Shown here piece by piece: positions 2,835 to 18,332 of a stretch of DNA of 45,506 nt. The notes beneath the pieces were generated by a model that ran no database searches, was not told where the DNA came from, and saw only the letters and a list, made by a program, of their open reading frames with translations. The position numbers and the translations under genes are program-made. Source of the DNA: a virus (Duplodnaviria > Heunggongvirae > Uroviricota > Caudoviricetes); the IMG/VR virus record IMGVR_UViG_2563366923_000008, positions 1-45,506 of that record; one strand, written 5' to 3'. Each line of letters starts with the position of its first letter. Positions within the stretch are counted from its first letter, which is position 1.

Positions 2835-5800
2835 TTATGCCTGAGTACGCAGCGCTTCAAGGCGGCGCAGGTCGAAGTCGTTCAGTTCGTCGGTGTAGTC
2901 AGCAGTGATTGGCGCTGGCCATTCACCTGTGTCGAATCCGGTTGCGATATTGCGCATCGCTTTGCGGTACTCGAGCATACCCAGCTCCAGTAGTTCAGCG
3001 GATGCCTCGATGATGGCGATCCAGTGGTAGTTCTCGTCTTTGTTGACGAAAATCCAGAAGAACTGATCCAGCGCTGCGGTTTCGCAGTACATAGCCGCGC
3101 TCAGGTGATAATCACGTTCAATAATTTCCCGGTGTAGCCTGGCGCGCAGGCTTTCCTGCTTAACATTCCACATGCTGATGGTTTTCAGGTCTGCACCTAT
3201 ACGCACGCCATCCAGGTCGATCTCAAGGTCAGGGCGCACACGAACTTCCAAGCCCGTCTCCTCGTCAAAACCAAAGTAGCTCACCTCAACGGCTCGGCTA
3301 GGGTGGGTCAGCAGCATGCCGGCGGTCGGGTGTGCCAGAAGCGCTTTTTGAATATTCAGCGCGGTGCTCAGCTGCTGGCGGGTGACCAGCACTTTTCCTT
3401 CCGGGTTATCGCGCCAGGCATCCAGCAGTTCGTCGGCAAATACGGCATCTGGTTTGACTGCCTTCACGGCCTGGATCATGTCTGCTTTGGTACCGGACAC
3501 TTTCAGTGGTGCCGGTTTCTGTGCTTCCTGAGCCACAAGGTCAGGGTTGATGATTGCCAACTGCTCCAGCAGCGCGTCACGGCTGCCGCTGGTTTTAACC
3601 GGCGGCGGCAGGGTGGCGTTGTACTCTTTAATGCATGCCTTCATTGCCGTCGCCGTCTGCTTCTGGTCACCATCAATACGCTGGAAGTCAGCTGGCAGCG
3701 CCATATAGTTCTGTGCCGTTTCTTCCAGGTTAGCGCCAAGCGGAACCTGCGGCGGCAGGGTGGCGTTGTACTCTTCCAGTAACACCTTGATGTCGTCGGC
3801 AGACAGCAGCGCCGGCAGGCTGGCATTGTGCTCATCGATAAAGGCGCGCAGGGTCGCGGCCGTTGTGAATGCGCCTTCAGGGATCACCGGTTCAACGCTG
3901 AATTCTGCGTCCAGTAGTTCAGGCTGCAACGCCAGCGCATGCACCAAGTTGCCCATGTCCAGCACCGCTGAGCGCTCTTTGACGATGGTTTTCTCTACGT
4001 GGCGCGCATTGAAGTACATCAGCGAAACGCGCGCATCTTTCACCTGGGTTGAGCTGATGCCGTTGGCGGCGTGGTAAACCTCGTTTGGCAGCCCTTCATA
4101 GCGGCCTGGCTCGAAATAAGCGGGATAAACAACAGCTGGTTCGTCAGATTGCGCTTCTGGCTCGGTTTGTGCTGCAACTGGTTCGGTTTGGCTTACAGAA
4201 TCGCTATTTTTGGCGACAGAATCCGTATTCTGGTCTACATCGTCCTTCTGGCTGGTATCTGACTCTTCACCAGACTCCAGACTGCTTTCGCCTGGCTGTA
4301 CTTCATCACCAGCTTGTTTTTCATCACTGACAGTTTCTTGAACCTGCACATTGCTGGTGGTCTCCGTAGCCTTTTTCGTGCCATGAGTTGCTGAGTTCTG
4401 CAGCAAAGCCGTAACGTCGAATATTCCGTTGCCGACATTTTTAACCAGTTCTTGTTCGACTTTCTGCGGTTGTGCTGCCGCTTCCTCTGCGCGGCGGCGT
4501 GCTCCTTCTTCACGCACGCGTTGCAGGTTCTCTTCGTGAGTGCAGAAGGATTTGCGCGGAGACTCCTTACCTTCAGGTTGGGGAATTTCCTGTGCTGCGG
4601 GTTCAGTCTCATGCAACGGCAATAACTCGACCGCGGAATTGAACGCGGCTGTCATGGTCTGGTTAACAAATTCCAGGTGAGCGACAGGAGTTAAATGAAT
4701 ATTTTCCGGTGCGATACGTACCAGGTTAAAAATAGCCGTGCGGTTAACACCCAGAACGCCTGGCTGATTGCGCAGGATGTTGCTCCATGATTTCCATGGT
4801 TCTTCTTTTTTGGTCACGATTTCTTTAGCGCGACGAAGAATGCTGCCCGGGATCTCGAAGTGGTTGAAGTCCATAGGCAGAAGGGCACACGCAATCTCTA
4901 AATCGAGAGTGTCCAGTGTGTGGTGTGCGTCAGGTCCACGGTCAGTGACGTAACCGCCGTCGGCATTAGTGCCGGAATCAGTACGCTGCACACTACTGAT
5001 GCGATTACCGGCGGCCCATTCGCGAACGAGGATACCGCGGTCGATGTGATCTGTAGCGAACCACAATTTCAAAAACTGGATTAAGGTTGCGAGTTCAGGG
5101 ATTTTTCCATCGACAGGGAAGACTTTCTTAACGGCATTCACGACTTTATGAATATCGTGCTCAATGGCTTTTTTGAATGCTTCCACATTCTCAGCTGCCA
5201 GCAGCAGGTTCTGGACGTACGCGTCATCGGTGTCCATCTCAAGGCGGACAATCTCATTTTTCTGCCCTGCGTCGATGTGATAGAGATATTCACCATCACC
5301 GATGAACTGAGCCAGTACGCGCTGGCGGAATGGCAGGGTGGCAACAACGATCAGGTTCGGTTGCTGTGTCTGCTGGGATTGCTCTTCGGTATCGACTTCA
5401 CCATCAACGACGCCACCTTCTGCCCGGCCGTTCTCGTCGGTCTGGATACCGTCCTCAACAGTGAGATCTTGACCCGTTGTAACGTCAGCAGCGTTGCTGG
5501 TTTCAGTTTTGAGCAACTGCAACTTACCACTGCGCCAGTCTTCTACCAGTTGATTGCGGTCACCGGCATCGGTGTTCACCCAGTCAGACATGAATGCAGC
5601 GATCAATCTTGGTTCGTGCTCTTCGTCTGGTGTGAAAATGTCCTTAACCGCCCGAATCATTTTCCACTCAGCATTCAGGCTGAGTTTGGCGGTCGCGGGC
5701 ACATCGTTCCTTGCCACAAGCAGGCTATGGAGATATGTATTGCCTTCATCTAGTGACATTTCGCTGGCAGCCAACTGCTGCTCTTTAGTGACGTGGGTTT

Positions 5801-6224
5801 GGTATTTATCGTTCATCAGATGGACGGCAAAGCGGACCGCTGGAGTACGGTTTTCAACCGGGACAATTTCGGACGCAGTCGCATCTTCAACGATTACGGT
5901 CGGAGTAGGTGTGTAGGGGGCGTCAACGGAACCAGTAGACACACCAGCGGCTTTTGGCAGCCAGGTGCGCCCATCGTCCTGAAGCTCGTAGCGATCACAC
6001 CAGGTAAAATCAACTTCACCTTCTTTCGGCAGGCCGTCGACAACTGGGAAATCAGTGCGAATCGGTTTGGCGTAGTCCTTACCCCGACCTGTTTCGATAC
6101 CTGCATCTTCCAGCGCAACATCCAGCATCAGATTGGCGCGAGCCTCGGTTTTAGCAGTGAACCAGACCACTGCATCTTGCTTTCCGGATTTCTGAGTGGC
6201 TTTAACCACATTAAAGAATTCCAT
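2835..6224 (-). CDS. recE: Exodeoxyribonuclease VIII (RecE-like 5'-3' exonuclease)
   Basis: 1129 aa; N-terminal DFPVVDGLPKEGEVDFTWCDRYEL matches the RecE N-terminus from memory; long acidic linker; C-terminal nuclease domain; paired with the RecT-like gene. Confidence 0.7.
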   Translation of the reverse strand: MEFFNVVKATQKSGKQDAVVWFTAKTEARANLMLDVALEDAGIETGRGKDYAKPIRTDFPVVDGLPKEGEVDFTWCDRYELQDDGRTWLPKAAGVSTGSVDAPYTPTPTVIVEDATASEIVPVENRTPAVRFAVHLMNDKYQTHVTKEQQLAASEMSLDEGNTYLHSLLVARNDVPATAKLSLNAEWKMIRAVKDIFTPDEEHEPRLIAAFMSDWVNTDAGDRNQLVEDWRSGKLQLLKTETSNAADVTTGQDLTVEDGIQTDENGRAEGGVVDGEVDTEEQSQQTQQPNLIVVATLPFRQRVLAQFIGDGEYLYHIDAGQKNEIVRLEMDTDDAYVQNLLLAAENVEAFKKAIEHDIHKVVNAVKKVFPVDGKIPELATLIQFLKLWFATDHIDRGILVREWAAGNRISSVQRTDSGTNADGGYVTDRGPDAHHTLDTLDLEIACALLPMDFNHFEIPGSILRRAKEIVTKKEEPWKSWSNILRNQPGVLGVNRTAIFNLVRIAPENIHLTPVAHLEFVNQTMTAAFNSAVELLPLHETEPAAQEIPQPEGKESPRKSFCTHEENLQRVREEGARRRAEEAAAQPQKVEQELVKNVGNGIFDVTALLQNSATHGTKKATETTSNVQVQETVSDEKQAGDEVQPGESSLESGEESDTSQKDDVDQNTDSVAKNSDSVSQTEPVAAQTEPEAQSDEPAVVYPAYFEPGRYEGLPNEVYHAANGISSTQVKDARVSLMYFNARHVEKTIVKERSAVLDMGNLVHALALQPELLDAEFSVEPVIPEGAFTTAATLRAFIDEHNASLPALLSADDIKVLLEEYNATLPPQVPLGANLEETAQNYMALPADFQRIDGDQKQTATAMKACIKEYNATLPPPVKTSGSRDALLEQLAIINPDLVAQEAQKPAPLKVSGTKADMIQAVKAVKPDAVFADELLDAWRDNPEGKVLVTRQQLSTALNIQKALLAHPTAGMLLTHPSRAVEVSYFGFDEETGLEVRVRPDLEIDLDGVRIGADLKTISMWNVKQESLRARLHREIIERDYHLSAAMYCETAALDQFFWIFVNKDENYHWIAIIEASAELLELGMLEYRKAMRNIATGFDTGEWPAPITADYTDELNDFDLRRLEALRTQA

Positions 6225-6363
6225 GTGAGATCCTCATTTTTGGGTGTTAGAATCCCCGGACCATTGATAGCGCCCATTGGGTTAACTTTGGTTTTAATGT
6301 TGTTTCCGGTGTAACTTTGGTCGGTACCACCGGACGTAGATCCCGCCTTGCGCGGGTTTTACG

Positions 6364-6525
6364 TTAGCCTTCGTGAGCCATCTGGTCGTGCGAAGCGCAA
6401 CGTTTGGAGCAATACTCTTTTTCTTTGCGCGCCAGCTGTGAGCCGTTGCGATAGAGAAGGGTGCTCTTGATTACTTCCTCCGTTTTAACCGGCTTGCCGC
6501 AATATCCGCATTTCTTGTCTAACAT
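6364..6525 (-). CDS. Small zinc-finger-like protein (53 aa, CxxC...CxxxC)
   Basis: ATG preceded by GGAGG SD at 5-nt spacing; MLDKKCGYCGKPVKTEEVIKSTLLYRNGSQLARKEKEYCSKRCASHDQMAHEG; below the 60-aa ORF-track cutoff, found by manual translation. Confidence 0.45.
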   Translation of the reverse strand: MLDKKCGYCGKPVKTEEVIKSTLLYRNGSQLARKEKEYCSKRCASHDQMAHEG

Positions 6526-6735
6526 GACATCCTCCGCTAGTGGCTGAGTCCATGCCCCAACCCGTTCAGATAAACTTCAACCAGCAAGTCGGTTGTGTAA
6601 GTCCGCTCAATCCCACGATGCAGATACAGGCGGCCGCGTTTATTTGCTGATGCTGTCCAGGTGCTTTCCCGATGCTTAACGAGCATCCCTGGGAGAACGG
6701 CGCCGCGGTTAACAGTCTGTGTCCCGTAATGATGA

Positions 6736-6846
6736 CTAACCATTGAACACCCCCGTGAAATGCATAATTTCGACAGCCAGGCCAGCCCAGAAAACCACAC
6801 CAATGGCCAGCGCGATAACCAGTGAGCGAATGCCGTTTCTGCTCAT
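6736..6846 (-). CDS. Putative small single-pass membrane peptide (36 aa)
   Basis: In-frame ATG inside track ORF 6736..6924; product MSRNGIRSLVIALAIGVVFWAGLAVEIMHFTGVFNG is one hydrophobic helix; first coding candidate downstream of PL; weak RBS. Confidence 0.25.
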   Translation of the reverse strand: MSRNGIRSLVIALAIGVVFWAGLAVEIMHFTGVFNG

Positions 6847-7031
6847 ACCGCACCCCAGCACTGAACGCTTACGAATGCGACCAAAGCCAACAACAGAGCC
6901 ACCTTCACCTTGAATCTGTTCCACGCAGGAACCTCATGTTCTCGGATCATCTCTTCACCTTTGCCTTATCGCGGCTAACGGGACGTTTTGACTTCACCCC
7001 GGCGTTGCCGGTGTTGTTTGGATGAGATGAT

Positions 7032-7101
7032 AATACTCCTGGTATTATTTTATATCAATACCGCCAGTATTATTATGTTTAATAAAAATACTAAAGGTAT
7101 G
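7032..7101. promoter_or_regulatory. OL operator cluster (three sites, consensus AATAC-N5-GTATT) with the leftward PL promoter
   Basis: AATACtcctgGTATT (7032-7046), AATACcgccaGTATT (7057-7071), AATACtaaagGTATg (7087-7101); same palindrome as the OR sites next to cI. Confidence 0.6.
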
Positions 7102-7171
7102 ATTTTAAAGTTAATTTATTTTTGTAAAAAGTGCTGTTATGCTCAAAAAAACATCATAAAGGGGTGTTGGC

Positions 7172-7375
7172 ATGTCAAATGAGGATGAGTTTTTCGCAGA
7201 AATGCACCCGCAGATAGCGCAGGTCATCGGGATAGCGGTTATGCAACTGCTGGTTGAGAAGCGCGAGCCCTCAAGAGAGGCGCTGATAGAGATGATTCAG
7301 GTGTTGTGGCAGGAAGACCAGGTCGATCTGGCTGTGGAGTTGGCGCTGGACGTGCTGATGCTGAGGGAAGAGTAG
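7172..7375 (+). CDS. Small acidic helical protein (67 aa), function unknown
   Basis: ATG with AAAGGGG SD; AT-rich promoter-like region overlapping OL upstream; MSNEDEFFAEMHPQ...ELALDVLMLREE is strongly acidic; convergent with the cI-downstream cassette. Confidence 0.55.
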   Translation: MSNEDEFFAEMHPQIAQVIGIAVMQLLVEKREPSREALIEMIQVLWQEDQVDLAVELALDVLMLREE

Positions 7376-7379
7376 GGCA

Positions 7380-7403
7380 GTAAAAACCCGGCGCGGTGGC
7401 CGG
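7380..7403 (-). terminator. Rho-independent terminator ending the cI-downstream cassette
   Basis: Hairpin CCGGC-gcggtg-GCCGG (7388-7403 on plus) followed on the minus strand by GUUUUUA; lies between the convergent genes ending at 7375 and 7412. Confidence 0.4.
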
Positions 7404-7411
7404 ATCAAAAG

Positions 7412-8293
7412 TTATGCTGCAGTTTGCAATATTAACCTTGCTGCATGCTCGGCAGTGCTTACAGAAGTGATTGATACATCGTAGGTGTTAGCCAAGTCCT
7501 GTAAAGAAAGGTACGCACTATTTATTGATGCTATGTGCCTATCATTGTATGCAGGGCTATCATCTTCCGGTTTGTAGATAATCATTTGATGAGTTTCTCT
7601 TGGAAAAATATCGCCTTGCCTTTTTATCATTGATAAGTCAGATATTTTTGCTTTTCCATCCTTAACCTGCTCATTCAAGTTGTGGGGTAACAGTTTTCCG
7701 GTGTTGATAGCTGCATGATCGCTTAGATAGAAAATTTTAGCCGGTCTGTGTCCATCACTAAAGGTGAAGCTTCTATTGAAAAAAATATCCCTGCGTCCGT
7801 CAGCGCTGATAACCGCATCAAAGATTTGAATTGGCCACCTGTCTTTAGTTCTTGATTGCTTAGCTGGCAACCCATCGGAATCTTCTTCAGCCTCAAGGAG
7901 TGATGACAAACTCGATGACAATGATACCGCTTGGCGGAGTATGCCAACAGGGCTTGATGACGCAGCATTCCTTACGGCGCTTATAGTGACGCCTGTAACT
8001 GGAGGATGCCATGATACGAAATCCCCCTTAGCAGCCAGATGCAACTTCAAACTCGACAAAATCAGATCAACCACATTGATAAATGCTGGTGCTTTGAAGC
8101 CATACATAGCTTCTATAACTTCTTTTCTGATTGCCGGCTTAACTAAAATTTCACCAGATGATGTTATCGTGGCAACTGCTACCGTGAGCCGCTCTCCTGA
8201 GCCGATCATTGGTTCAAGATAAACAGATGCCCAGCGCCCTGATGTTGCAGGCATAGCAGGAGCTGACTTAAGAAGCTGATCAAGATTTAGCAT
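7412..8293 (-). CDS. Hypothetical 293-aa protein, second gene of the cI-downstream cassette
   Basis: ATG start overlaps the upstream gene stop by 14 nt (translational coupling); AT-rich; no motif recognised. Confidence 0.7.
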   Translation of the reverse strand: MLNLDQLLKSAPAMPATSGRWASVYLEPMIGSGERLTVAVATITSSGEILVKPAIRKEVIEAMYGFKAPAFINVVDLILSSLKLHLAAKGDFVSWHPPVTGVTISAVRNAASSSPVGILRQAVSLSSSLSSLLEAEEDSDGLPAKQSRTKDRWPIQIFDAVISADGRRDIFFNRSFTFSDGHRPAKIFYLSDHAAINTGKLLPHNLNEQVKDGKAKISDLSMIKRQGDIFPRETHQMIIYKPEDDSPAYNDRHIASINSAYLSLQDLANTYDVSITSVSTAEHAARLILQTAA

Positions 8294-9044
8294 CGTATAT
8301 CATCTGTGTTTGTTGGGGCTTGATTTGATCATAAAGAATGTCTCCTAGTAACTCAATTCTAGATGAAAGGAAAGACATTATTTGATTTTTCTCTTTACCT
8401 TGAACTGTTTCGGATATCTCTCCATCTAATAGCGTTAGGGTGTTACTCTTGCAAGACATGGTCCAAGCTCTCGCCTCATTTGCCATCATCTGAACGGCTA
8501 TATCATTACTTCTATCGAGTATGTAAGTTGCTACCTGCAGCAATTGATTGGAGTAATAATCTATCCCGAAAAGGTCAGGGGCAAGACCTTGGGGAATTGC
8601 CGATTCATGGTCTATCAGGAAGAAACCATCACCATTGAAAAGCAAATTTCCGTTGTGACGGTCATCCATCGCAATCCACTCATCAAAATAGCTAGCTTTT
8701 TTCAATAACGGCCATGATGCCAAAGCATCAGAAACGGCCTGATCTGAAGAGTTAGAAACATACTTCATGAAACTCGGATAGGTAGCATCAACACTACCAA
8801 AAAATGCTTTGTTTGAGCTGTCAAACAGTAGTACTGGCTCGGGTATAGGCAGGGATAGAGCTCTTCCCAAGGCTGCGCAGGTTATTTCTATAGAAATGCT
8901 CCTAGAAGATATTTCTTTTGCAAAAACAACAATCTCTTCTGGTTCGCTATTTTCTTTTATCAAAAGAGCAACGCCCTTTATCGGGTGATGTTGCCCTTCG
9001 TCAATTGCAATGCCGCCAGGTAGTAACCTTCCTATTCTGATCAC
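8280..9044 (-). CDS. HipA-like (PI3/4-kinase-fold) putative Ser/Thr kinase core, 254 aa
   Basis: GTG start with AGAGG SD 7 nt upstream; motif WIAMDDRHNGNLLF followed 8 aa later by FFLIDHESA resembles the HipA catalytic loop (D-x-H-x-x-N) plus downstream Asp; about 100 nt downstream of cI on the same strand. Confidence 0.6.
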   Translation of the reverse strand: MIRIGRLLPGGIAIDEGQHHPIKGVALLIKENSEPEEIVVFAKEISSRSISIEITCAALGRALSLPIPEPVLLFDSSNKAFFGSVDATYPSFMKYVSNSSDQAVSDALASWPLLKKASYFDEWIAMDDRHNGNLLFNGDGFFLIDHESAIPQGLAPDLFGIDYYSNQLLQVATYILDRSNDIAVQMMANEARAWTMSCKSNTLTLLDGEISETVQGKEKNQIMSFLSSRIELLGDILYDQIKPQQTQMIYDAKS

Positions 9045-9145
9045 ATTTAAGCCTCTAAGTTATTGCTATCTTCTCATCACCCAAACACCTTGTCAGTCCA
9101 CTACCGACTACCCATGCTTCCTGTACGTCCGCGGCATGCTGCTGA

Positions 9146-9856
9146 TCACACAAGTCTCAACTTAGTTTCTACAGCCACACCAATGATCCGGCAATTCCCA
9201 TTGATGGGAACCAATGGCCATTGAGGGTTTAAGCCCTTCAGGTACTTCTGGCCCCCATCAATAATCAGCTTTTTGAATGTCGCTTCGTTTGATTCGGATA
9301 GCTTTGCGATCACAAGGCTGCCATTTACTGGCTCTCGGCCGGTATCAAACAAAACGTAGGTACCCTCTGGTATGCTGAGCCCGACCGGGGCAGTCATGGA
9401 TTCCCCCTCGACCAACAACCAGAACGCATCCCCCTGGATGTGAGCGTCTGATTCTAGCCATAGATCGATATCTTTAAGTGCATACGGCTCGCACGCTTCC
9501 GACCAATGCCCAGCCTGAATCTTGCTTAATACAGGGTATTTAATGCCTGGGGTGTACTGGCCTGCATACTTGGCATTCGATGTAGCGGAAGCACTCATTG
9601 CAGATATTTCTTTCGCAAGGCTGGGGCTAAAATCAGAGACATCCACCTGGAGGGCTCTGGCAAAAACAGCAGCCACGGCAGCATTAAGGGCATTCCTGCC
9701 ATTCAAGTAATGCCCAACGCCCCCCTGAGATATGTCTAGCATGTCAGCTATTGATTGCTGTGTTATCCCAAGCTCTTTTTTCTTGGCTTCATAGAGGGCT
9801 TTCAGCCTTTCTGCGTCAGCGATCTGAGCCGATGTCAGTGTCTTTTTCTTTTCCAT
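9146..9856 (-). CDS. cI: CI repressor (Cro/C1 HTH plus LexA-like S24 autopeptidase domain)
   Basis: Near-colinear with lambda CI from memory (LKALYEAKKKELG...SMTAP...FKKLI...LNPQWP...); ATG at 9856 has no SD, consistent with a leaderless PRM transcript; track start at 9862 is TTG. Confidence 0.9.
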   Translation of the reverse strand: MEKKKTLTSAQIADAERLKALYEAKKKELGITQQSIADMLDISQGGVGHYLNGRNALNAAVAAVFARALQVDVSDFSPSLAKEISAMSASATSNAKYAGQYTPGIKYPVLSKIQAGHWSEACEPYALKDIDLWLESDAHIQGDAFWLLVEGESMTAPVGLSIPEGTYVLFDTGREPVNGSLVIAKLSESNEATFKKLIIDGGQKYLKGLNPQWPLVPINGNCRIIGVAVETKLRLV

Positions 9857-9890
9857 TTTCAAATAGTAATACCAATGTTCTTATTTTAAA

Positions 9891-9929
9891 AATACTCGCG
9901 GTATTGCAATGTTTAATACTTGTGGTATT
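9891..9929. promoter_or_regulatory. OR operators (two clear sites) with divergent PRM/PR
   Basis: AATACtcgcgGTATT (9891-9905) and AATACttgtgGTATT (9915-9929) between cI and cro; a third degenerate site may lie at about 9868-9885. Confidence 0.65.
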
Positions 9930-9960
9930 GTTTACTCATGAGTTGATAGGAGCTAACCAC

Positions 9961-10152
9961 ATGAAAATTTCTTTAGCTGAATACGTTGACGAAGTTGGAC
10001 AGGCAAGAGCTGCTGATGCCATCGGCGTTCACCAGACCGCAATTAGTAAAGCTATCCGGGTAGGGCGGAAGATTTTCGTTAACACCCTGCCTGATGGAAA
10101 AATTAAGGCTGAGGAGATCAAGCCTTTCCCACATAACAGAAATCCTGATTAA
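9961..10152 (+). CDS. cro: Cro repressor
   Basis: 63 aa, AGGAG SD; MKISLAEYVDEVGQARAADAIGVHQTAISKAIRVGRKIFVNTLPDGKIKAEEIKPFP resembles lambda Cro; track ORF 9751..10152 is an upstream extension artefact. Confidence 0.85.
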   Translation: MKISLAEYVDEVGQARAADAIGVHQTAISKAIRVGRKIFVNTLPDGKIKAEEIKPFPHNRNPD

Positions 10153-17723: not shown

Positions 17724-17753
17724 TTGACCAGAAAATTAACATGTTGTTAATCT
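17724..17753 (+). promoter_or_regulatory. Candidate late promoter PR'
   Basis: TTGACC (17724-17729), 18-nt spacer, TAATCT (17748-17753). Confidence 0.45.
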
Positions 17754-17759
17754 ATTCGT

Positions 17760-17923
17760 GTGGTGAATCCCCCTATGCGGAGGGGCGACCAGTCAAACTT
17801 TTTTGTCCAGGTTTGTTTGCGCGGAACTAGTCGGCTGGGGCTGTTCCACCGGGAGGCACCCGGCGCCACCTCCTTGACGGTATTGTTATTTTTCATGCCT
17901 GTTCGTCCGAGCAGGCTTTTTTT
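17760..17923 (+). ncRNA. Putative short PR'-initiated, tR'-terminated transcript (lambda 6S RNA analogue, Q-modification target)
   Basis: Promoter at 17724-17753 and strong terminator GCCTG-ttcgtccgag-CAGGC plus T7 at 17897-17923; no convincing ORF between them. Confidence 0.3.
17897..17923 (+). terminator. tR'-like Rho-independent terminator
   Basis: GCCTGttcgtccgagCAGGC followed by TTTTTTT. Confidence 0.55.
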
Positions 17924-18332
17924 GCCCGCATTATCTTCATTGAAAACTGGCAACTCAGAGAATCATCCAAATTAAAAAAGCAGCAACGAGAGCGATTACT
18001 AATACATTCTTCGCTTTTTCTCTTCTGCTGGCCTTCACAAAAGGATTCACTATCCGGCAGTGGCTACACACAAGTGATTCTGGGTTAATTAACTTTCCGC
18101 AGTAGGGGCAGGGCTTGATAATCATTGGTACTAATTAAGTTGTGAGAACGTAGTCTCATTTAACCACATTTATCGAGTTGTTTTACTAATGGTCTAGTTA
18201 TTTCAGACATATTCATCAATTTCAGGCTCACGGGAATCATCCGCTACGTGCTTTGTTGATAAATCCAGCCCGTGAAGCCTGACCCTTTTCAAACACACAC
18301 ACAGCGCCATCCGAAAAATCGGAGGTGAGGCT

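Follow-up and report, generated by a model that had tools for sequence, protein, structure and literature searches.

The 45,506-bp stretch of viral DNA analyzed here (IMG/VR record IMGVR_UViG_2563366923_000008, referred to in its whole length as the window) carries six copies of a short palindrome, AATAC-N5-GTATT, in two clusters on either side of a repressor gene of the cI family. The six sites very probably constitute the left operator (OL; sites beginning at 7032, 7057, and 7087) and the right operator (OR; 9915, 9891, and 9868) of a lambda-type lysis/lysogeny switch in a Klebsiella-type lambdoid prophage, within the specificity class of phage HK620. Four lines of evidence underlie this assignment, i.e., the homology of CI and Cro with their lambda counterparts, the lambda-identical distances of the OR sites from cI, the overlap of the sites with promoters, and the fact that the motif and the CI recognition helix vary together. 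The operator class is already on record in HK620; judged by its sequence, the window is a further member of this class and introduces no new regulatory principle.

A pattern scan of both strands of the window yielded four exact copies of AATACNNNNNGTATT (OL1, OL2, OR2, and OR1 in Table 1), against 0.02 expected from 100 dinucleotide-preserving shuffles, none of which reached four. OL3 is a fifth copy with one mismatch, and beyond these five copies there is no match with zero or one mismatch on either strand of the 45,506 bp. A pattern-blind repeat finder recovered the same copies, spaced by 25 and 30 bp at OL and by 24 bp at OR. A previous, sequence-only reading of this DNA had described five palindromes, three at OL and two at OR, and had named equally good matches scattered through the window as an objection to their being operators. 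The five copies are real (four exact and one with one mismatch) and no such scatter exists, so this objection fails; the count at OR has to be corrected to three sites, as the degenerate site at 9868-9882 (AATACCAATGTTCTT, two mismatches) had been overlooked. Both clusters are located in AT-rich intergenic DNA with a GC content of 0.38-0.40. The better form of the motif, refined from 137 sites of the operator family described below, is AATACY-N3-RGTATT (Y, pyrimidine; R, purine); with up to two mismatches allowed, it has 10 matches in the window against 3.2 expected, and six of these 10 lie inside the OL and OR clusters. An oriented, asymmetric operator of the lambda kind was considered and rejected: all five window copies combine one AATACT with one AATACC half, a pattern attributable to chance family-wide, where CT, CC, and TT combinations number 68, 32, and 28, respectively.

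The relation between motif and repressor was examined in 80 loci encoding CI relatives, collected by scanning a single genome for each species. Every one of the 29 distinct loci with a recognition helix of the form G[AG][VI]GHY[LI]NGR has at least one site (one mismatch at most) no farther than 260 bp upstream of cI, and 24 of the 29 have two or more, whereas none of 28 loci with other helices has an upstream site, even though some of these show up to 79% identity in the CI C-terminal domain. The family sites occupy narrow positions relative to the cI ATG (-71 to -76, -47 to -51, and -25 to -27), and a second cluster of two or three sites follows in 26 of the 29 loci, 24 to 2336 bp past the cI stop codon. 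Positions 6 and 10, which were not used when the family sites were selected, are Y and R in 96% of the 137 sites, and the central three positions carry only about 0.08 bit each. The motif thus tracks the recognition helix of CI across the related loci, a co-variation that supports the putative binding of CI to the palindromes.

The arrangement of the right cluster is that of the lambda switch: three tandem symmetric operators, of which OR3 is weak, lie between cI and cro and overlap both the rightward promoter (PR) and the promoter for repressor maintenance (PRM). Measured from the A of the cI ATG (9856), the distances of OR1, OR2, and OR3 are 66, 42, and 19 bp, the same as those of the annotated lambda operators, with spacings of 24 and 23 bp. 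The site at 9868-9882 has a single good half-site, GGTATT in the cI orientation. It is assigned as OR3, and OR as tripartite rather than bipartite, because 17 of 28 other distinct prophages carry a one-mismatch site at that offset. PR is fused to the operators, its -35 hexamer starting with the final two T of OR2 and its -10 hexamer within the GTATT of OR1. This fused design is maintained in the relatives, with a -35 of the form TTGnnn in 25 of 29, a -10 of the form TATTnT in 28 of 29, and a spacer of 16-17 bp in 28 of 29. On the cI strand the sequence reads GGTAT-TACTAT-TTGAAA-ATG, and a Shine-Dalgarno (SD) sequence is absent. The TTTTAA located 17 bp upstream of the -10-like hexamer is a poor -35 next to OR2, an arrangement also seen in the activator-dependent PRM of lambda. 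A TANNNT hexamer precedes the cI ATG by 5-7 nt in 24 of 29 relatives, and the lambda counterpart, TAGATT-TAACGT-ATG, likewise has 6 nt. The view that cI, lacking an SD, is expressed from a leaderless PRM transcript as in lambda agrees well with this spacing and its recurrence. SD-like tetramers occur in four of the 29 relatives; they were rejected as true SD sequences of cI, as they fall inside the -10 hexamer or the OR3 half-site and not at SD spacing.

The left cluster is a second group of operators overlapping the leftward early promoter (PL), as in the lambda switch. PL is the best promoter match of this cluster, and its fusion to OL1 and OL2 parallels that of PR to OR1 and OR2. The C-for-A variant in OL3 (CATACC in the cI orientation) and the 30/25-bp spacing recur in the two closest relatives, loci L006 and L007. 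OL3 is the least constrained site of OL, because it decays to two mismatches in L089 and L090. All 26 records that match the flanks of the left cluster are from Klebsiella phages. Beside OL3, an AT-rich block at 7113-7127 (ATTTATTTTTGTAAA on the plus strand; TTTACAAAAATAAAT in the cI orientation) is kept at the equivalent position in L003 (HK620), L006-L009, L014, and L072, and in HK620 it lies within the annotated tIMM. This block could be a PL2-like -35 region (TTTACA-18-AATCAT), an integration host factor (IHF) site or UP element, or a part of the promoter of the adjacent small gene.

Both regulators belong to the lambda families. CI and lambda CI align end to end, over 232 amino acids (aa), with 44% identity, and the best PDB matches of the window CI are structures of the lambda repressor, 3bdn (2.8e-53) and 1lmb. 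Residues Q33, D38, Q44, N52, and N55, the KKK arm, and the QAG, SMTAP, and FKKL motifs align with lambda; the last three fall on A111-G112, S149, and K192 of lambda CI, as expected of a self-cleaving S24 repressor. By way of rationalization only, the conserved Q44, N55, and Lys arm presumably pair, as judged from the 1lmb complex, with the conserved A2 and C6 of the half-site, and the substitutions S45G and A49H presumably with the altered base pairs 3 and 4. The start of cI is placed at ATG 9856, where the relatives begin with MEKKK or a similar sequence; a TTG at 9862, given in a mechanical listing of open reading frames (ORFs), was rejected since the relatives align to the ATG. Cro, encoded divergently from cI across the operator region as in lambda, is 49% identical to lambda Cro, and the next gene is of the CII family. 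An index of public assemblies lists the exact CI protein in 905 blocks, and no deposited phage genome carries this allele, the best match being 75.6%.

By homology with lambda, the switch would operate as follows. In the lysogen, CI dimers on OR1/OR2 and OL1/OL2 would block PR and PL, and CI at OR2 (-42) would activate PRM, whose -35 hexamer is weak. PRM would start at the A of the AUG and produce a leaderless cI mRNA, probably extending across the cargo pair as far as the hairpin at 7382-7406. OR3 and OL3, both weak, would provide negative autoregulation, possibly via a 2.8-kb loop between OL and OR. RecA-stimulated self-cleavage at the conserved QAG, for which the Ser/Lys dyad is kept, would then lift repression, and Cro would bind the same operators.

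Several observations weigh against the operator assignment or parts of it. OR3 has two mismatches and one good half-site; PR agrees with the consensus at no more than 8 of 12 positions and escaped the promoter scan. OL3 has one mismatch and decays further in two otherwise identical loci, and the OL2-OL3 spacing is 30 bp, against 20 bp in lambda. The positive-control residue E34 of lambda CI is Q in the window (D38 is retained), which makes activation of PRM by CI at OR2 less certain than repression. Finally, the searchable literature gave no binding, footprint, or transcript-end study of HK620-type operators; the known status of this class therefore rests on GenBank annotation, in which the HK620 operators appear to have been placed by position and symmetry.

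Table 1. Operators, promoters, and genes of the immunity region and the adjoining early-left operon (window coordinates).
Feature	Position	Strand	Sequence or product	Remarks
OL1	7032-7046		AATACTCCTGGTATT	exact; overlaps PL -10
OL2	7057-7071		AATACCGCCAGTATT	exact; final two bases begin PL -35
OL3	7087-7101		AATACTAAAGGTATG	one mismatch; 30 bp from OL2
OR3	9868-9882		AATACCAATGTTCTT	two mismatches; centre 9875, 19 bp from cI ATG; overlaps PRM -10
OR2	9891-9905		AATACTCGCGGTATT	exact; centre 9898, 42 bp from cI ATG; abuts weak PRM -35; gives TT to PR -35
OR1	9915-9929		AATACTTGTGGTATT	exact; centre 9922, 66 bp from cI ATG; contributes TATT to PR -10
PL	7030-7058	-	TTGATA-17-TATTAT	10/12 to consensus; -35 at 7058-7053, -10 at 7035-7030
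PR	9904-9931	+	TTGCAA-16-TATTGT	8/12 to consensus; read from the sequence, under the promoter-scan threshold
PRM -10-like hexamer	9863-9868	-	TACTAT	6 nt upstream of cI ATG
PRM -35 (weak)	9886-9891		TTTTAA	adjoins OR2; 17 bp upstream of the -10-like hexamer
cI	9146-9856	-	236 aa	HTH_3 (1.3e-8) and Peptidase_S24 (2.7e-22)
cro	9961-10152	+	63 aa	Pfam Cro PF09048 (1.3e-23); AGGAG upstream
Cargo pair	7412-9044	-	254 aa (8280-9044) and 293 aa (7412-8293)	14-nt overlap; position of lambda rexAB
tIMM-like hairpin and T-run	7382-7406	-	stem GAUCCGGC/GCCGGGUU, then UUUUU	-14.7 kcal/mol, z = -2.15
Small acidic gene	7172-7375	+	67 aa	phrog_3946; divergent from PL, within the bracketed region
Early-left operon	2835-6924	-	KilR (6537-6743), YdaE (6364-6525), 62-aa hydrophobic protein, 1129-aa Exonuc_VIII/RecE-like protein	

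Phage HK620, reportedly described by Clark and co-workers in 2001, is the closest known system. In its GenBank record (AF335538), OR1, OR2, OL1, and OL2 are annotated as 17-mers with an AATAC-N5-GTATT core, and the window sites conform to the HK620-type consensus nAATACY-N3-RGTATTn. The comparison with known lambdoid operators that the sequence-only reading had recommended thus indicates that the specificity is not new. The recognition helices, SQGGVGHYLNGRNALN in the window and TQGAVGHYLNGRNALN in HK620, differ inside the helix by a single conservative residue (G vs. A at position 46). The HK620 CI is also found in HK140, mEpX2, HK630, and several Stx2c-converting phages. The two systems share the operator core, the CI family, a lambda-family Cro, a degenerate OR3 centred 19 bp from an SD-less cI ATG, and cargo between cI and OL. 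By contrast, HK620 is a coliphage whereas the window prophage is associated with another host genus, and their CI and Cro proteins have diverged by 25% and 50%, respectively. The cargo in HK620 is hkaS, in place of the kinase-like pair and the small acidic gene of the window, and its left operon carries N, sieB-like, and cIII genes, in place of Rac-like kilR, ydaE, and recE.

These differences raise the possibility that the window operators share the HK620 core and yet form a distinct heteroimmune specificity, i.e., a new immunity type, set by the central triplet, the flanks, the spacing, or protein contacts. In its favor, CI and Cro are just 75% and 50% identical to those of HK620, CI differs at positions 46 and 34 (Q vs. 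Y at the latter), the OR spacing is 24/23 bp as against 25/24 bp, and OL3 is placed at 30 bp rather than at 45 or 22 bp. However, the sites agree with those of HK620 at the contacted positions, the central three are nearly informationless across the 137 sites, the remainder of the helix, QG(G/A)VGHYLNGRN, is identical, and window and HK620 sites are interchangeable under the family matrix. A separate immunity type is therefore regarded as a tentative and rather unlikely alternative to membership in the HK620 class. As regards the HK620 record, the annotated OL3 (5212-5228, TTATCATTATTTCATCA; locus L003) fits the family consensus poorly, and the sequence at 5190-5204 (AATATCCTTTGTATT), at a distance of 45 bp from OL2, agrees with it better; L034 and L035 have perfect sites with the same 45-bp separation of OL3 and OL2. 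The GenBank OL3 of HK620 may thus be misplaced.

The resemblance to lambda extends beyond the proteins (44% for CI and 49% for Cro) to the 19/42/66-bp positions of OR3, OR2, and OR1, the -10 hexamer 6 nt before an ATG of the leaderless type, a tripartite OL overlapping PL, and accessory genes between cI and OL; the OL-OR distance is approximately 2.36 kb in lambda and approximately 2.8 kb in the window. The operators themselves are not of the imm-lambda type (17-bp operators with a TATCACCGC half-site), which was considered and rejected, since lambda operators differ at base pairs 3, 4, and 8-9. The half-site nAATACY of the window differs from TATCACCGC at base pairs 3 and 4, and within the helix the lambda residues S45, A49, L50, and I54 are replaced by G, H, Y, and R, respectively, in the window. 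AATAC-type sites do not occur in the lambda immunity region. Furthermore, the OL2-OL3 spacing is 20 bp in lambda and 30 bp in the window, and an N gene is not seen to the left of the window PL.

For Salmonella phage epsilon34, which is grouped with sister CI subfamilies, an operator WTACRAWWTGTAT has been predicted (PMC2629481). In loci with the helices GAVSHWLNARR and GAVGHWLNGKR, the sister CI subfamilies resemble the window in an ATAC...GTAT core and in two clusters around a CI/S24 repressor and differ in having another helix and a purine at position 6, where the window has a pyrimidine; the sister subfamilies are probably separate specificities. The ATAC/GTAT core with a purine at position 6 was observed in L030, L031, L033, L036, L044, and L073 and in the Pseudomonas loci L049-L066. 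The helix GAVSHWLNARR corresponds to TATACR-N3-YGTATW and the Pseudomonas helix GAVGHWLNGKR to AATACA-N3-TGTATT, and the sister subfamilies thereby offer a natural series for mapping the helix residues that read position 6.

Further information regarding the bracketed region has been obtained from eight loci with an identical CI. In all of them both operator clusters are retained, whereas the segment from cI to OL has been exchanged. This slot contains the kinase-like pair in two of the loci; one locus each has a KilA-N/BstA_C protein, DUF6932 together with a 305-aa protein, or a ParA-like ATPase, and the others have small ORFs. The statement that cI, the cassette of two genes, and the small acidic gene are enclosed by the sites is hence borne out, as both clusters persist while the intervening cargo changes. 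OL1 is kept in all eight loci, only its central triplet varying (AGG or CGG), and OL2 is invariant in all eight. Across the sites as a whole, changes are confined to the central triplet except for OR2 in L092 (GTACT) and OL3 in L089 and L090 (CATAT). In L092 (GCA_053078535.1), OR2 reads AATACCGCGGGTACT, with a T-to-C change in a conserved half-site, and may be an operator-down variant.

The segments 7006-7163 and 9140-10141 both align at 72-74% identity with the corresponding OL and cI-cro regions of L006 and L007, whereas the DNA around the OL and cI-cro blocks matches heteroimmune Klebsiella phages at up to 100%. One of these, ST101-KPC2phi6.1, which carries rexAB and a 162-aa repressor, is 100% identical to window positions 6900-7026 and has different repeats where the window has OL1-3. 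Because the OL patch and the cI-cro block match the same relatives while their flanks match heteroimmune phages, the comparison indicates that the operators travel with cI and cro and that the DNA around and between them has a separate history. Co-transfer of cI and cro is frequent in lambdoid phages (PMC9836094).

The small acidic gene beside OL bears on the role of the left cluster. Its product is 92.5% identical at the aa level to a protein of ST101-KPC2phi6.1, where the gene adjoins rexAB, and distant look-alikes occupy the same position in Siccibacter, Enterobacter, Providencia, and Yersinia prophages; in five of the identical-CI loci the gene is shortened to 45 aa. An extended -10 element, TGTTATGCT, is located at 7135-7143 in its upstream region (7113-7171). 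The left cluster (7032-7101) might accordingly control mainly this divergent gene, instead of or besides PL, and constitute a second bidirectional switch like OR. A rightward promoter-like sequence, TTTATA-16-TATTAT (7049-7076), overlaps OL2, and a small gene divergent from PL adjoins OL in the window, in all eight identical-CI loci, and in L001, L006, L007, L014, and L047, its start codon lying 30-113 bp from the first OL site where it diverges from PL. Nevertheless, the strongest promoter of the cluster is leftward (10/12) and fused to OL1/OL2 as PR is to OR1/OR2, and many family members have an OL cluster without such a small gene. In the heteroimmune locus L001, moreover, the operator patch is replaced and yet the 60 bp in front of the acidic gene, which contain the extended -10 (TGnTAnGCT), stay with the gene, which suggests that the promoter of the gene is independent of the operators. 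Control mainly of the acidic gene consequently seems improbable, and there is a slender chance that OL is a second bidirectional control region in which OL3, with its unusual 30-bp distance from OL2, sets the expression of the acidic gene, as a CI-influenced switch component or as lysogen-expressed cargo. That the palindromes are chance AT-rich promoter features or host-factor sites, as their AT-rich intergenic setting and -10-like GTATT half-site might suggest, is scarcely credible given the number of exact copies over expectation, the co-variation with the CI helix, the fixed offsets from the cI ATG, and the other repeats at the same place in a heteroimmune phage with 100% identical flanks. 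The assignment of both clusters to CI and Cro as lambda-type operators would fix the boundaries and logic of the immunity region in a very common Klebsiella/Enterobacter-type prophage. Furthermore, the matrix AATACY-N3-RGTATT, in combination with the helix GxVGHYLNGR, is usable for the annotation of immunity regions in at least a dozen Enterobacterales genera.

The assignment also places the kinase-like cassette in a cI operon predicted to be expressed in the lysogen, at the position of rexAB, and provides a context for testing it as a defence system. No terminator was detected from cI to the cassette by the promoter and terminator scan, so that cI and the cassette probably share a transcript, as cI and rexAB do in lambda. 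The hairpin at 7382-7406 was missed by the consensus terminator scan and its folding support is modest; its sequence also occurs in L001, L002, L006, and L007. Sequence searches of Pfam, NCBIfam, PADLOC, PHROGs, and PDB with the cassette and acidic proteins gave only function-unknown PHROGs and, for the 254-aa, kinase-like protein, weak matches to HipA_2 (9.6e-6) and PADLOC PDC-M66A (2e-6); the 293-aa protein matches phrog_21150 only and no family. The GC content of the pair is 0.38-0.47, against 0.50-0.55 in the flanks, and neither protein is encoded in the 80 loci with CI relatives, both being restricted to identical-CI loci. From the gene content of the loci compared, the interval from cI to OL is a hotspot of changing cargo that includes the known defence gene BstA, and the two genes of the pair are candidates for a defence or toxin system. 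Within the 3′-terminal part of the kinase-like gene, shortly ahead of the 293-aa gene, a promoter-like sequence TTGAGT-17-TATGAT (8328-8356, minus strand) was noted; as a consensus match only, its placement recalls lambda pLIT inside rexA.

PL drives, leftward, the genes for the 62-aa hydrophobic, membrane-like protein, kilR, ydaE, and the 1129-aa RecE-like protein, as identified with Pfam on the identical arrangement in L088. An N-type antiterminator gene is not evident between PL and the kilR, ydaE, and recE-like genes, and the early-left operon resembles that of Rac more than that of lambda. An Rfam scan of the whole window returned nothing in the immunity region; the sole family detected in the window is the small RNA STnc100, at 17728-17927 on the plus strand (85 bits; gathering score 47).

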